Shown in pieces: positions 24,991 to 31,345 of a DNA stretch of 54,893 bases. The stretch is from positions 1 through 54,893 of IMG/VR virus record IMGVR_UViG_3300037225_000166; one strand, given 5' to 3'. The translations under genes and the position numbers were made by a program. Under the pieces are notes generated by a model, which was not told the DNA's origin, did not search any database, and worked only from the letters and a program-made list of their open reading frames with translations. Numbering within the stretch: the first letter of the stretch is position 1; every line of letters begins with the position of its first letter. The stretch is from a virus (lineage: Duplodnaviria > Caudoviricetes).

Positions 24991-25393
24991 CGGCCTTCGG
25001 GTAAGAGCAGGTTTGTGTTACGTTTTTAATGAATTTTATATGGATAAAAAATTGGAACAATTTTACTTTAACTGATTAAATAGAACGAAAATGAAAGAAT
25101 TAACAGATCAATTTGAAATTGAAAAATACAAAGAAGAATTAGACGATCATAGAAAAATAGAACAGATGAAAAACAAGGACTATGATTATGACCACAAAGG
25201 GAATATTGAATATTGTTCATGTGGCAGACCGTTAAATTCTCATGGATGGTGTTTCAGATGTGATGGCTAATGCCTAACAATTTTGAAAAAAATTGGGTGC
25301 GGTGGGAAAATTCTTTAAAATAAGTAAAACAAAACTGATGTTAAGTTGCGATACTTTGAGTAACCTCAAACTTGCTTTTACCCGATGTTACAG
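24985..25393 (-). repeat. attC-like hairpin 3 with a gene in its loop
   Basis: TCGGGTAAGAGCAGGTTTG / CAAACTTGCTTTTACCCGA, then GTTACAG at 25387. Confidence 0.65.
25091..25270 (+). CDS. Small zinc-finger protein (59 aa, not in the ORF track)
   Basis: CSCG...CFRC; A-rich leader before the ATG. Confidence 0.5.
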   Translation: MKELTDQFEIEKYKEELDDHRKIEQMKNKDYDYDHKGNIEYCSCGRPLNSHGWCFRCDG

Positions 25394-25511
25394 CCTGCAC
25401 CCATCACGTGATAGGGGTAAAATCGCAACTTATAGCGGTGGCTTACCCGAAGGCCGTTACAGTGCAATAGTGTGAAAGGAGAATGATTTTTTAACTTATA
25501 AAAACTAAAAT

Positions 25512-25796
25512 ATGAAAGAGATTGATAACTTGATTGAAAAATGGGAAAAAGAAGCTGCTAACTATGAGAAAAAATCGTATGAGGCATTTAGGGATTTCAA
25601 AGAACGCAGAACGTTATATGCTTGGACAAAGCAGCTTCGTAAATGTACTAAAGACCTTAAAAAATTAGGCGATTCACACGTAGAGCGTAATGTTTTAATT
25701 GATTTTATAAAAGAATTGAAGAAGGAATTTGCTGATGTCAATTTAGATTACTTAGACTTTGCAGCAGAACGATTCCTAAATCAATTAAAACCATGA
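25512..25796 (+). CDS. Cassette hypothetical protein
   Basis: 94 aa ORF with A-rich leader. Confidence 0.55.
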   Translation: MKEIDNLIEKWEKEAANYEKKSYEAFRDFKERRTLYAWTKQLRKCTKDLKKLGDSHVERNVLIDFIKELKKEFADVNLDYLDFAAERFLNQLKP

Positions 25797-25810
25797 AGCG
25801 GATTGCACTG

Positions 25811-25892
25811 TAACGATCAAGGGCAAGCACAGTACAAATGAGTAGTAGATAGATGATTGAAAGAGTTATTTTCAAAACTTTAGGAGGGATTT
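25811..25892 (+). repeat. ~80 bp junction/arm repeat, near-identical to 30031-30113 and partly similar to 27275-27300
   Basis: Shared TAACGATCA...CACAGTACAAA...AGATAGATGA...GAAAGAGTTATTTT.AAAACTTTAGGAGGGATTTT. Confidence 0.8.
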
Positions 25893-25917
25893 TTAACTTT
25901 AATAACAAATAAAAATT

Positions 25918-26148
25918 ATGAAAAACTTAACTTTTAAAAAACACCTGAATAGAATGGGGTATGATGATAACGATATTGCTATACTCAATAGTGATACGTT
26001 AATAGAAATGGGAGAAGAATATGCAAAACGAGCAGCAAAGGATTTTAAAGTATGGTGTTGTGAACAGGTTATTGCTGGCAGAAATGTCATGCAATTATGG
26101 GATGAATATGTAATGAGTAATGGAAGTTCTATTTCACATAAATTTTAA
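25918..26148 (+). CDS. Hypothetical protein
   Basis: ORF in the array. Confidence 0.55.
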   Translation: MKNLTFKKHLNRMGYDDNDIAILNSDTLIEMGEEYAKRAAKDFKVWCCEQVIAGRNVMQLWDEYVMSNGSSISHKF

Positions 26149-26160
26149 AAAAATAATAAA

Positions 26161-26454
26161 ATGGAAAAACAACACGGAATTATTCTAATTGCTAATGAAA
26201 GAGCAGAACAAATTGTAAAGCATAATCGAACTATCCTTTATGATTTAAAATTCAATTCTCAATGCGAATTGCGAGTAGCAGCAATGGCACTTATTAAACA
26301 CAAAGAAACATGTGATTATAAAGATTTCCCTCATCATTGGGATGATGAAATCTGTAAAAAAATGGCTGCAAAACCATATATTCAAAGATTGGCAATTGCA
26401 GGTGCTTTTTGTGCAGCTGAGATTGATCGAATATGGGCTGGCAATTATTATTAA
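26161..26454 (+). CDS. Small phage protein (ERAEQ...AGAFCAAEIDR type)
   Basis: Motif pattern common in phage accessory genes. Confidence 0.6.
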   Translation: MEKQHGIILIANERAEQIVKHNRTILYDLKFNSQCELRVAAMALIKHKETCDYKDFPHHWDDEICKKMAAKPYIQRLAIAGAFCAAEIDRIWAGNYY

Positions 26455-26488
26455 GTAACTTATTATAAACACTTTAAAATTTAAAATT

Positions 26489-26812
26489 ATGTATTTCGGA
26501 AGAGAAAAAAAACCAGAAGAAGGAATTATGATTATTTGCCGTTGTCCAAATTGGTGTGATTCTGGTTATCAAATAGCAAAATTTGAAGATGGTATATTTT
26601 GTTATGATGACCAACCGAATGATGCTTTTGACGAAAATGTGATTGCATGGACACCATTAGACGAAGATGGCGAACAAACAGAATCTATTCACAAACCAAA
26701 AGCTGACAAATGGGATGCGCTTGGGAAAGGATTATGTATGTGTACTAAAAAACACTGGGCAATAGAAATAAAAAATAACAGATGTCGTATTTGTGGATAC
26801 CCTTTAAAATAA
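26489..26812 (+). CDS. DUF551-like hypothetical protein
   Basis: KKPEEG N-terminus and VIAWTPL motif. Confidence 0.45.
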   Translation: MYFGREKKPEEGIMIICRCPNWCDSGYQIAKFEDGIFCYDDQPNDAFDENVIAWTPLDEDGEQTESIHKPKADKWDALGKGLCMCTKKHWAIEIKNNRCRICGYPLK

Positions 26813-29296: not shown

Positions 29297-29436
29297 AAAA
29301 ACAGAAGCGGGAGGGGCATTTTTTATTTTTCATCAAATTACCGATGAACTTAAATAGAAGCTACTCCACCGCTTGTTTATAACGGTATCCGAACATGAAT
29401 AGTACGACTAATTAAGAATATAACTTGATAAATGAT

Positions 29437-29649
29437 ATGAGAATAAAAAATTTAAAGCAAGGGTATTATCTCCTAATTTGTAGATTATTAGGACATATTT
29501 ACATTCTAAAACCCAAACCTGATATACTCAGTAATAAACGAGAATGTAAACGATGCGGACACAGACAAATCAGGATGCAAAAAAAATTCCCTGAATTTTA
29601 TTGGATAGATGATCCAGTTGAAAAGTTTATTAACACTAAAATACCATAA
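29437..29649 (+). CDS. DUF1660-like small protein
   Basis: LICRLLGH...CKRCG motif. Confidence 0.55.
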   Translation: MRIKNLKQGYYLLICRLLGHIYILKPKPDILSNKRECKRCGHRQIRMQKKFPEFYWIDDPVEKFINTKIP

Positions 29650-29651
29650 TC

Positions 29652-29852
29652 ATGAAAAAAGTAAATTTTACAGTAATAATTTCAAAAGAAGTGCCAGTTG
29701 AAATAGAGTATATCGAAGGAGATACAAACGAGATTATAAACGATAAATGTGTTAAACAAGCATTGAGTAAGGTTAATGAAGATAGTTTTGATTGGAAGGC
29801 TAATGTTGTAATAAATACAATGGATTTTATTAAAAACAAACTCCGATCTTAA
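29652..29852 (+). CDS. Hypothetical protein
   Basis: ORF in the array. Confidence 0.5.
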   Translation: MKKVNFTVIISKEVPVEIEYIEGDTNEIINDKCVKQALSKVNEDSFDWKANVVINTMDFIKNKLRS

Positions 29853-29926
29853 TGAAGCAAGGGTAAATTTTTTATTAAACCTGAATAAGCATAGAAGCTA
29901 TGAACAGAGTATTATTTATGTTTGGT

Positions 29927-30034
29927 GTTATAAACTGGCTGAATTATGCAGCCAATAGCATATACATGGGCGTGTATATGATGTTTGCAGGGCTGCATAA
30001 TAAGGGATTGAAGCAGGGGCAGCTTGTTTATAAC
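29927..30034. ncRNA. ORF-less palindromic cassette (108 bp)
   Basis: GTTATAAAC/GTTTATAAC ends; ATTATGCAGCC/GGCTGCATAAT; CATATAC/GTATATG. Confidence 0.45.
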
Positions 30035-30113
30035 GATCACGTACATACACAGTACAAACGAGCAGAAGATAGATGAAAGAAAGAGTTATTTTTAAAACTT
30101 TAGGAGGGATTTT

Positions 30114-31178
30114 ATGATTCATATTGGTTTATTTTCTGGTATTGGTGGTTTTGAACTTGCCGCATCATGGAAAGGATGGAACACCATTGTAACCTGCGAA
30201 ATAAACGACTTTTGCAATACCGTATTAAATTATTACTTTCCAGATGCTTACCATCATGGAGATATAAAAACACTTACTTATGACACAATTAACATTGAAC
30301 TTTCAAAACGATTCGGAAAAGGCTGGAGAAACGAACCAATCATCCTTACAGGTGGATTCCCATGCCAACCGTATAGCATATCCGGAAAAAGAGAAGGCAA
30401 AGAAGATCCTCGCCATCTCTGGCCGGAAATGCTTAGAACAATACGAGAAATTCAACCAATGTTCGTTGTGGGGGAAAATGTTTATGGACTTGTTAATTGG
30501 AATGGAGGTATGGTATTCAACCAAGTGCAAGTTGATTTGGAAAATGAGGGCTACCAAGTACAACCGGTTATTCTTCCAGCTTGTGCCATTGATGCGCCAC
30601 ACAAACGAGAAAGAGTTTGGTTTGTTGCCTACAATACAAACTCAGGGATTGAAGGTATGCAACAATGGAAAAACCGGATTTATGAAAACAGATTTACTTC
30701 CAACACCAACATCACACCAACAAGGAACACAATTCAAACAGGGAGGAACTTGCCTACAAGCAAAATTATTACCGACACCGAAAAAACAAAACTCAAACAG
30801 TCCAGGAATACACGGACAGGGAGGAATGGATTTACAGACCTACATAATGACAAATATGTTACCGACACCAGATGCAGCATCAGGAAAAACAGGATATATG
30901 GGAAAGAATCGGAACGGAAAGCAGGAGAATTTAGAAACGGTAATTCGGAACAAGATAGATGGTCAAACTTCCCTACTCAATCCCCGATTTGTAGCCGAAA
31001 TGATGGGATTTCCTCCAAACTGGTTGGAATTACCTTTTCAAAGCATAGAAACGAATCAATTAAAGGATACGGAAATGCAATAGTACCCGAACTGGCTTAC
31101 ATTATCTATGATGCAATCGATCAGTTTTGTAAAAAACTGCAAGAAGCGAGGGAAAGTTTTAAAAATAACGAGAAATAA
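30114..31178 (+). CDS. dcm: DNA C5-cytosine methyltransferase, alpha polypeptide
   Basis: LFSGIGGF (I), GGFPCQPYS (IV), ENV (VI), HKRERVW (VIII), YGNAIVP (X). Confidence 0.9.
   Translation: MIHIGLFSGIGGFELAASWKGWNTIVTCEINDFCNTVLNYYFPDAYHHGDIKTLTYDTINIELSKRFGKGWRNEPIILTGGFPCQPYSISGKREGKEDPRHLWPEMLRTIREIQPMFVVGENVYGLVNWNGGMVFNQVQVDLENEGYQVQPVILPACAIDAPHKRERVWFVAYNTNSGIEGMQQWKNRIYENRFTSNTNITPTRNTIQTGRNLPTSKIITDTEKTKLKQSRNTRTGRNGFTDLHNDKYVTDTRCSIRKNRIYGKESERKAGEFRNGNSEQDRWSNFPTQSPICSRNDGISSKLVGITFSKHRNESIKGYGNAIVPELAYIIYDAIDQFCKKLQEARESFKNNEK
30280..31083 (+). CDS. Overlapping alternate-frame beta polypeptide of the C5 methyltransferase
   Basis: 267 aa ORF nested in dcm; LPTP repeats and LNPRFVAEMMGFPPNW (motif IX-like). 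Confidence 0.7.
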   Translation: MTQLTLNFQNDSEKAGETNQSSLQVDSHANRIAYPEKEKAKKILAISGRKCLEQYEKFNQCSLWGKMFMDLLIGMEVWYSTKCKLIWKMRATKYNRLFFQLVPLMRHTNEKEFGLLPTIQTQGLKVCNNGKTGFMKTDLLPTPTSHQQGTQFKQGGTCLQAKLLPTPKKQNSNSPGIHGQGGMDLQTYIMTNMLPTPDAASGKTGYMGKNRNGKQENLETVIRNKIDGQTSLLNPRFVAEMMGFPPNWLELPFQSIETNQLKDTEMQ

Positions 31179-31225
31179 CCTACAAAATGAACTACGAAGA
31201 TATGAAGGTATTGTGTATGTACGGT

Positions 31226-31345
31226 GTTATGCAGCCTGTACTCAGGCGGACTGTTGCAGGGGCTTTGCGATATGGTGTAAACACTCTGTTTGCACCGTTG
31301 AGAGAGCAAAGTGTGTGTGGGATTTCGTGTGCAATAGTGCATAAT
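31226..31345. ncRNA. ORF-less structured cassette, homologous to 28093-28214
   Basis: Shares GTTGCAGGGG, TATGGTGTAA, TTGCACCGTTG and GTGTGCAAT, with compensatory changes. Confidence 0.5.

Follow-up and report, generated by a model that had tools for sequence, protein, structure and literature searches.

The attC recombination sites of integrons are roughly 57-141 bp long and have a non-coding variable terminal structure. The pdif sites of Acinetobacter plasmids are 28-bp duplex sites with conserved Xer-binding arms (XerC/XerD, with a 6-bp spacer), and the RNase III stems around 16S/23S rRNA and between the T7 early genes are long-range processing stems. Here, we describe an accessory-gene array of 7.5 kb (24.16-31.6 kb) in the phage genome IMGVR_UViG_3300037225_000166, the whole virus record of which (54,893 bases) was analyzed and is called the window below. 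The array carries hairpin sites from about 24198 to 31350, a wider span than the 24991-31232 first described. With roughly even confidence, we regard them as integron-like, structure-specific cassette sites that have no integrase in cis and stand outside the canonical attC family.

As reported in the part of Nivina et al. (2016, PMC5027507) drawn on here, cleavage of attC sites falls within the 5'-AAC-3' triplet on the bottom strand in its folded form, the sites carry three unpaired features, and their G:T mispairs number 1.24 on the recombined strand versus 0.39 on the other. Clusters of attC sites lacking integron integrases (CALIN) occur in virulent phages, including a Polaribacter phage, with methyltransferase cassettes among them, according to PMC9892861. 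The promoter early stem-loop elements (PeSLs) of T4-like phages are small structured modules between non-essential genes in a hyperplastic region, for which the relevant part of PMC2839356 proposes modular shuffling and mini-circles.

Compared with these systems, the array is most like attC sites and CALIN. Its sites are imperfect palindromes that are recognized by shape and not by sequence, with AAC/GTT triplets at the stem base and an unpaired spacer nearby. Moreover, the G:T mispairs favor one strand, the outer half-sites are specific to their unit and pair across the cargo, and promoterless-looking units with methyltransferase cargo form arrays of one orientation without an integrase in cis.

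Complementary arms and outer flanks in the array

Each junction in the array consists of a TAAC core followed by a left arm or of a right arm followed by a GTTA core, and the pairing distance ranges from 117 to 1191 nt. For a rank test, the duplex energy of each 36-nt left site was calculated against every 60-nt tile of the whole genome (about 1,830 tiles). For a specificity matrix, six left arms were paired with six right arms after the common cores had been removed. A strict ungapped scan demanded TAAC, 2-6 free bases, a 17-nt arm with at least 15 pairs, and GTTA within 1.5 kb. A preliminary description of this DNA had placed whole genes between far-apart arms; all four of these long-loop pairs were recovered by duplex folding, three of them by the strict scan as well. 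The short hairpin sites were found (24198..24335 and 28211..28332), and the ORF starts (ORF, open reading frame) at 24772 and 28271 do lie inside hairpin loops. The parts of the array are as follows (dG, free energy; MFE, minimum free energy).

24138..24167, + strand: array head with the promoter-like motif TTATAYTACATTTGTAAT, which has four genome copies in all
24198..24338, + strand: short site from TAAC 24198 to GTTA 24335, 15/17 in the strict scan with an inner distance of 133; the hairpin 24236-24332 inside it has a dG of -44.7
24326..24713, + strand: long-range pair 24326-24378 / 24657-24713 around ORF 24456-24677; dG -47.0, present in MFE folds
24715..24824, + strand: hairpin with the ORF start 24772 in its loop; dG -33.7; a row of the six-site alignment A3 and homologous to the methyltransferase-leader hairpin
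24988..25460, + strand: long-loop site 1, left arm 24988-25020 and right arms 25360-25391 and 25437-25459; 17/17; TAAC 24988 with GTTA 25387 or 25456, inner distance 395-464, enclosing ORF 25091-25270; 18 nt pair at 100%, genome-wide ranks are 1-3, and the duplexes with the two right arms reach -31.0 and -29.4
25455..25839, + strand: outer-flank pair 25455-25468 / 25802-25815 around ORF 25512-25796, followed by the left arm 25811-25839, which is 90% identical to 27275-27303 and 79% to 30031-30059; the outer flanks 25455/25802 pair at 9/10, and the helix 25437-25468 / 25802-25833 is present in the array fold
27275..28096, + strand: long-loop site 3, left arm 27275-27301 and right arm 28070-28096; dG -26.9; TAAC 27275 with GTTA 28093, inner distance 814, enclosing ORF 27374-27583 and YopX 27595-28020
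28093..28214, + strand: gene-less spacer from GTTA 28093 to TAAC 28211, homologous to 31247-31335 and containing the hairpin Ec
28211..28335, + strand: canonical 125-nt site, the loop of which carries the start codon (28271) of the methyltransferase; 16/17, inner distance 117; covariation in alignment A3
28271..29296, + strand: N6/N4 DNA methyltransferase (PF01555); outer flanks 28336-28345 / 29370-29379 pair at 8/10 across 1044 nt
29380..29930, + strand: long-loop site 5, left arm 29380-29406 and right arm 29908-29930; dG -28.8; 17/17; duplex -21.4; TAAC 29380 with GTTA 29927, inner distance 543, enclosing ORFs 29437-29649 and 29652-29852; present in MFE folds
29927..30034, + strand: gene-less spacer (E5) from GTTA 29927 to TAAC 30031; dG -20.1; outer flanks 9/10
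30031..31229, + strand: long-loop site 6, left arm 30031-30056 and right arm 31207-31229, with an inner helix 30085-30101 / 31153-31169; TAAC 30031 with GTTA 31226, inner distance 1191, enclosing the whole C5 methyltransferase 30114-31178
31226..31350, + strand: last spacer hairpin (Ed), ending in the degenerate core TAAT; dG -18.2
31595..31617, + strand: second copy of the promoter-like motif, closing the array; 95.7% identical to 14544-14566

Based on the rank test, the proposed downstream partner came first among the ~1,830 tiles for J0, J1 and J6, second for J4 and J5, and third for J3, which accounts for 6 of the 7 left sites. In the specificity matrix, the cognate pair was the best of its row and column in 5/5 cases, with energies of -31.0, -19.9, -28.9, -21.4 and -25.6 kcal/mol, whereas the other combinations ranged from -3 to -18. 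The strict scan returned seven matches on the + strand of the window, five in the array (inner distances of 133, 395, 117, 543 and 1191 nt) and two weak ones (15/17) elsewhere, compared with one match on the - strand and 1.25 per genome in the shuffled window. Similarly, the array holds 5/7 genome copies of TATAACG (1.0 expected) and 5/9 of GTGTTAT (1.3 expected). The arms around the C5 methyltransferase, described earlier as complementary at 15/16, reproduced this Watson-Crick count and reached 16/17 when G:T was included; this site has a 17-nt pairing stretch at 100%, a duplex energy of -25.6, and genome-wide rank 1 with a z of -6.2. The weakest pair is 27275/28093, a bulged helix seen by duplex folding only (-19.9), yet the best in its row and column; it was present neither in the MFE folds of the single unit and the whole array nor in the strict ungapped scan. 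When the units were folded singly, the closing helix appeared in the MFE structure for 4/5 units, this pair being the exception, and a span-limited fold of the whole array retained only three long-range helices, a weak test either way. In 10/12 helices, the coding-strand duplex was the more stable. A looser scan with consensus patterns of the two site types was dropped, as it matched the antisense strand of the window equally often (25 versus 25).

The site at 25814 had been described as having no closing arm. Indeed, no downstream arm partner was found for this left site (25811), but its outer flank ATTGCACTGTAACG pairs upstream with its complement CGTTACAGTGCAAT (25455-25468), which directly follows the right core of the preceding pair. 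This pairing led us to see the array as a chain of alternating arm pairs (TAAC...GTTA) and outer-flank pairs (GTTA...TAAC). In the window, the flanks pair at 10/10, 9/10, 8/10 and 9/10 in 4 of the 7 intervals. Either type of interval may hold genes: the body of the N6/N4 methyltransferase lies in an outer-flank interval and the C5 methyltransferase in an arm interval, while three outer-flank intervals are gene-less spacers of 100-114 nt. The earlier view that cargo lies inside arm pairs as well as between sites therefore holds, and "cargo in the loop" is better described as a unit flanked by two complementary half-sites, with the cargo on a varying side of the core. The stops reported on the core TAA at 24990 and 27277 are present in the window; as a family trait, they did not stand, since 12/47 sites is about what frame chance gives.

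The spacers 28114-28204 and 31247-31335 (93 nt) are 74% identical and have a common internal hairpin, GGTGTAAGC/GCTTGCACC versus GGTGTAAAC/GTTTGCACC, with one compensatory change and no Rfam family match. Additionally, 8 of the 10 genome copies of the motif GAAGCR(0-2 nt)RGG lie inside the array (24692-31143; 1.4 expected), often just 5' of a left site or where an ORF ends; examples of the latter are 26991 and 28012, where two ORFs finish in GAAGCGTAG.

A site family in other phage records and its shared units

Relatives were found by an N6/N4 methyltransferase search of viral contigs followed by a hairpin-loop pattern (other phage records are labeled with L and a number), and the site scan covered the window and 14 other uncultivated phage records. 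Sites occur in 13/14 of these other records and strict-scan matches in 12/14; L019, cut 5 nt from its end, has no strict-scan match but part of one site, and L011 showed no site in the strict scan. On the coding strand there were 50 matches versus 6 antisense, with 0-0.4 in shuffles. The usual form is ~125 nt long with an inner distance of 108-119 nt and consists of TAACG, a 4-6 nt bulge, a 17-20 bp arm and TGTTA. These sites stand in rows of 2-8 between ORFs, often N6_N4 methyltransferases, and the hairpin precedes its cargo and usually holds the cargo start codon. In L007 (3251-5842), for example, three N6_N4 methyltransferase genes lie in tandem with one canonical hairpin site between each. 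Collectively, the sites form a conserved family that can be found by pattern.

Short and long forms alike have a core helix of 5-7 bp, an asymmetric unpaired spacer and an arm of 17-20 bp. Anchoring the scan on TAAC/GTTA gave 53 distinct sites with 17-nt arms, and there were 44 distinct short sites. Among the 53, 4-6 nt are unpaired after TAAC in 49 and 1-3 before GTTA in 48. The alignment A3 comprises six homologous short sites from four records, two of the six from the window. Of its 25 pairs in two helices, 12 show compensatory changes, and 94.7% of the cells are paired, compared with 77.6% in shuffles (reached in 0/500) and 23-48% when the partner was slid by 1-3 columns. Thus, the arm pairing is kept while the arm sequence varies. 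The G after TAAC faces the T before GTTA in 6/6 rows, and some G:U pairs are invariant. With strand-neutral detection, G:T mispairs outnumber A:C mispairs in the coding-strand fold of the 53 sites by 106 to 20 (2.00 versus 0.38 per site), and the purine fraction of the coding strand of the sites is 0.555. The long form is found in relatives as well: in L017, 5620/5900 pair at 17/17 over a distance of 276, and a bulged long pair at 2839 (distance 658) encloses two small ORFs.

Across the family, the ten-base stretch that follows GTTA matches the one that precedes the next TAAC as its complement (at least 8/10) in 20/31 neighbors, whereas the same test gives 7/47 within a site and 2/39 for non-neighbors. 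Because the outer flanks match neighbors across the cargo while the arms match each other, each site of an array is a hybrid, as would result from rounds of conservative exchange at the AAC core. Whole units are shared between records. Two records with nothing else in common over 9 and 14 kb have a 1005-bp unit at 100% identity, which begins with the T of a TAAC and stops 4 nt beyond the following AAC. L020, L021 and L026 have sites 94-96% identical to the 125-nt site of the window, and the block of identity extends exactly from TAAC to GTTA. Furthermore, L016 and L017 have the same hairpin, 44-residue leader and 3' end, with a different N6_N4 methyltransferase body between. The leader (MIER...TLADC...TNEAQKIKNAKRG; window 28271-28402 and L016 4001-4132) spans the loop, the 3' arm and the next 70 nt, and it is common to two different N6_N4 methyltransferases that are 51% identical over the first 71 residues.

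Beyond these records, the loci of portal/MuF relatives (portals 41-51% identical) had no array, and the genome contigs gave no relatives. These loci contained 0 inverted pairs within 2 kb, where the same BLAST settings gave 7 for the window, including 4 within the array. Exact patterns of the Ec/Ed hairpin and of the left arms 25811/27275/30031 matched 0 viral contigs. The hairpin had no match in GenBank phages, where array matches were limited to the body of the C5 methyltransferase; the homologous gene of Bacteroides phage BS-TP4 lacks arms. At gathering level, no Rfam family matched the array, and at E <= 5 there were only two chance-level matches. No description of the site family was found in the papers searched or in GenBank phages, a search that reached PMC9892861 short of its supplements.

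Candidate recombination sites, possible messenger structures and other proposed origins

The interpretation as cassette sites builds on the observed anatomy, conservation, strand bias, hybrid chain and shared units. On the coding strand, a site runs from the outer flank through TAAC, G with about four unpaired bases, an arm of 17-20 nt and the loop to the complementary arm, 1-2 unpaired bases, GTTA and the second outer flank. A unit extends from one AAC core to the next and contains one arm pair and one outer-flank pair. Circularized, it would restore a stem of ~35 bp (outer flank, core and arm) that divides a small loop from a cargo loop. Cargo on the outer-flank side gives the usual form, a ~125-nt hairpin with the start codon followed by the gene, and cargo on the arm side gives genes nested between arms, as in four units of the window. 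We infer that exchange is site-specific and takes place on folded coding-strand DNA at the 5'-AAC-3' triplet, that the enzyme may be a tyrosine recombinase acting in trans from the host or a co-infecting element, and that the long-loop sites may be working or recently working variants.

The structure-specific cassette reading fits best because of the core, the spacer, the covarying arms, the mispair skew, the hybrid sites and the block edges. We also propose, tentatively and as a possibility short of probable, an undescribed phage cassette system in which a coding-strand hairpin serves both as recombination site and as translation-start module, exchange at AAC is carried out by a host or unrecognized enzyme, and kilobase loops are tolerated, with genes, including anti-restriction methyltransferases, inside or beside the site.

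Several observations weigh against cassette recombination. No tyrosine recombinase, serine recombinase or Y1 transposase was found in the window genome: PF00589 had no match at E <= 1, while its control was positive in 14/14 genomes, and no recombinase family appeared among the 49 window ORFs scanned with Pfam or the 20 scanned with PHROGs. Among the array-bearing records, PF00589 was found in 3/10, and in 0/2 of those of the ten that are rated 100% complete. Two array records carry small Xer/IntI-like recombinases. That of L017 (6049-6852), which lies 150 nt after the last hairpin and is the sole recombinase adjoining an array, is Xer/IntI-like but below every curated cut-off (TIGR02249, 161 bits versus 265), and it was not found in five other array records. 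Homology breaks at the GTTA core too, unlike what exchange of one strand at one position would give, and homologous recombination in hairpins of 94-97% identity could create such block edges as well. For the long-loop sites of the window, no orthologue was found in relatives. Finally, the better-folding strand of the sites is the coding strand, opposite to integron cassettes, and in 27/44 short sites an ORF that reads out through the 3' arm opens at a loop ATG, which usually lies 59-61 nt past TAAC and has an A-rich stretch upstream; the other 17/44 have no ATG reading out. The coding-strand fold, the fixed loop start codon and the invariant G:U pairs fit an RNA structure equally.

The reading as a variant of attC, as put forward in the preliminary description, survives in part. 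What agrees with it are the core, spacer, covarying arms, G:T skew, outer flanks and exchange at the cores; the integrase, consensus, extrahelical bases, strand and loop content do not. The G:T skew itself lies on the coding strand, while in integron cassettes the recombined strand, on which G:T mispairs and purines are enriched, is antisense to the cargo. AAC/GTT triplets are paired at the stem base in the window and family sites. The R-box consensus RYYYAAC/GTTRRRY, however, is not kept in the window sites, whose 7-mers are TTATAAC, CTGTAAC, GTATAAC and ATATAAC on the left and GTTATAC, GTTATAA, GTTATGC and GTTACAG on the right, with A at the third position instead of the required Y and T or C at the fifth instead of R. 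The arm helix of 17-20 bp lacks the extrahelical bases of attC: none is present in A3, where the 19-pair helix is continuous, and some other sites have 1x1 mismatches. In length and loop content the sites also depart from attC, with an ORF start in 27/44 short sites and loops of up to 1.2 kb holding whole genes in four window sites (spans of 400-1200 nt). Moreover, the outer flanks are 8-14 bp versus 6-7, the sites fold better on the coding strand, the hairpin lies 5' of the cargo and usually includes the start codon and leader peptide, and no attI, Pc or IntI is present. Because the R-box consensus, extrahelical bases, short non-coding loop, strand logic and integrase all fail, the family is placed outside the attC sites.

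A serious though rather unlikely alternative is that the hairpins act in polycistronic mRNA, where the start region stays open in a ~70-nt loop and a strong stem insulates the cistrons; as part of the same explanation, the long-range arms and outer flanks may close whole cistrons for stability or processing. Shuffling of cassettes would then be a by-product of homologous recombination in conserved modules, as for the promoter/stem-loop cassettes of T4-like phages, and the part of PMC2839356 on regulatory cassettes offers a precedent. The strand preference (7 versus 1 in the window, 50 versus 6 in the 14 other records), the tolerated and partly invariant G:U pairs, the greater stability of the coding-strand duplex and the loop start codons with their A-rich upstream stretch all agree with this explanation, as do the closing helices in thermodynamic folds of 4/5 segments. 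The two promoter-like copies bracket the array, and of five terminator-like sites found, none is on the + strand. Promoter-like matches numbered 36 versus 38.4 in shuffles, in a sigma-70-type scan that does not cover Bacteroidota-type promoters. In addition, the window encodes no recombinase and carries an exonuclease-like gene (7010-7720).

An RNA role alone, however, leaves unexplained the invariant AAC/GTT core, the neighbor-specific outer flanks, and the 100% identical unit that ends a few bases from the cores with no homology beyond. The 17/44 short sites without an ATG reading out also speak against it, and a one-strand G:T skew is seen in DNA attC sites too, in the data taken from PMC5027507. 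The bracketing stems of rRNA and T7 are alike in that complements hundreds to thousands of nucleotides apart bracket a unit and include an asymmetric internal loop. In contrast, RNase III-type cutting of the short phage form would part the start codon from its ORF, and the AAC/GTT core and trans flanks have no counterpart there. Likewise, PeSLs resemble the sites as small conserved structured modules between non-essential genes, but in PMC2839356 they comprise a sigma-70 promoter and a terminator hairpin and recombine by homology, whereas the phage array has no coding-strand terminator-like site, its arms covary and its flanks pair in trans. Cassette exchange and a role in mRNA are not mutually exclusive.

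It is improbable that the sites are duplex Xer/dif-type sites and that host XerC/D-like enzymes move the modules between inverted sites, as with pdif. The alternation of inverted left-type and right-type sites with cargo in both kinds of interval would suit this, together with the breaks of homology at both cores and the small Xer/IntI-like recombinases in two array records. The likeness to pdif, namely a chain of modules with inverted flanking sites and hybrid sites between neighbors, is confined to module layout, as pdif has neither hairpin logic nor strand bias. Binding arms should be conserved, but here they vary freely with covariation, and a G:T versus A:C skew would be meaningless in duplex DNA.

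Very improbable, too, is an origin of the arm pairs as the terminal inverted repeats of elements, some with cargo, that are small transposons or resemble miniature inverted-repeat transposable elements (MITEs). Inverted repeats of ~25 nt do flank segments from 125 nt to 1.2 kb, and a 125-nt element at 94-97% identity occurs in unrelated contexts with sharp ends. However, no transposase family was found in the window by the Y1 search and Pfam scans, and no target-site duplication is evident in the listed flanks, judged by eye and uncounted. The arms differ between copies with compensatory changes, unlike transposase-bound ends, and the outer flanks pair with neighbors instead of repeating directly. 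Conserved repeats, target-site duplication and transposase, by which such elements are recognized, were thus not seen. That the long-range complementarity is chance or decayed duplication without function is hardly credible: long RNA folds always give many long-range helices, and the two 15/17 matches outside the array are near the shuffled rate, but the genome-wide partner ranks, the diagonal of the left-by-right matrix, the common bulge and core architecture, the three long-loop pairs at 16-17 of 17 and the conservation of the family across records all contradict it.

If the sites recombine, cassette capture and shuffling of the integron type would extend to integrase-less environmental phages, with cargo that consists mainly of DNA methyltransferases, likely anti-restriction genes. 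Structure-specific sites would then work with opposite strand logic, a built-in ORF start and kilobase loops, which would bear on the origin of cassettes, open for integrons, and on how far the design of synthetic attC-like sites can be pushed. Should the hairpins act in mRNA instead, they would be a portable translation-start insulator and a clear case of cistrons closed by long-range stems. On either interpretation, the family is readily found by pattern and is open to ordinary assays.

Genome context of the array

The window begins and ends with a direct repeat of 212 nt (1-212 and 54682-54893, 99.5% identity), and it is therefore probably a complete genome, circularly permuted or terminally redundant; its CheckV completeness is 100%. 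Every sizeable ORF lies on the + strand. Recognizable genes include DnaB, the small and large terminase, a Mu-type portal (21830-23266) and a MuF-like protein (23479-24105). Directly 3' of the last follows a run of small ORFs with YopX (27595-28020), the N6/N4 methyltransferase (28271-29296) and the C5 methyltransferase (30114-31178), for which the Pfam scan gave E values of 2.8e-13, 8.4e-36 (PF01555) and 3.9e-43 (PF00145), respectively. Beyond the array, the structural genes continue with a protein bearing a PBECR2 nuclease domain (31798-32190), followed by a virion morphogenesis protein.

The MuF-like protein, 208 aa long, aligns with residues 1-196 of a 458-aa relative (L001, 8357-9733); this nearest portal relative (51% identity) has no such array behind its MuF gene. 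The array begins directly after the MuF-like gene, and the PBECR2 nuclease-domain ORF lies 7.7 kb downstream of it. Because the MuF-like protein is short, the array adjoins it and the PBECR2 ORF lies downstream, the array may sit where other phages keep the C-terminal part of MuF.

The promoter-like motif TTATAYTACATTTGTAAT has four copies in the genome (5974, 14544, 24138 and 31595), each ahead of a gene block, and those at 24138 and 31595 bracket the array. We take it to match the Bacteroidota -7 box TAnnTTTG, and it is likely the phage's own Bacteroidota-type promoter motif. By portal, the closest cultured phages are Bacteroides phages (24-27% identity), and on indirect evidence the hosts of the array-bearing phages appear to be Bacteroidota. 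Sequencing runs with matching sequence are labeled peat and permafrost metagenomes; part of the stretch is present in 20 of the 22 listed runs, including two metatranscriptomes with 0.57-0.59 of the sampled words.

Outside the array, a stretch resembling transfer-messenger RNA (tmRNA) lies at 3829-4288. Its Rfam match (3890-4023) to tmRNA_permuted scores 47.4 bits versus a cut-off of 47 and covers model positions 29-109 only, and ARAGORN calls a tmRNA in 3829-4288 with an implausible tag peptide; the stretch could be either a tRNA-like 3' fragment or the remnant of an attachment site. The ORF that follows (4868-5905, 345 aa) was considered as an integrase and rejected, as it has no recognizable integrase match. 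Two paralogous genes (6192-7001 and 10105-10916) are 68% identical over 830 nt with products of about 256-263 aa; both have a weak AP2 DNA-binding domain and one a Cys-rich CWC motif, and they may be homing-endonuclease-like. Finally, diverged direct repeats of 27-140 nt (67-85% identical) at 48322-50059, within and between ORFs 48116-49177 and 49341-50084, are probably repeated domains of tail or fiber proteins.

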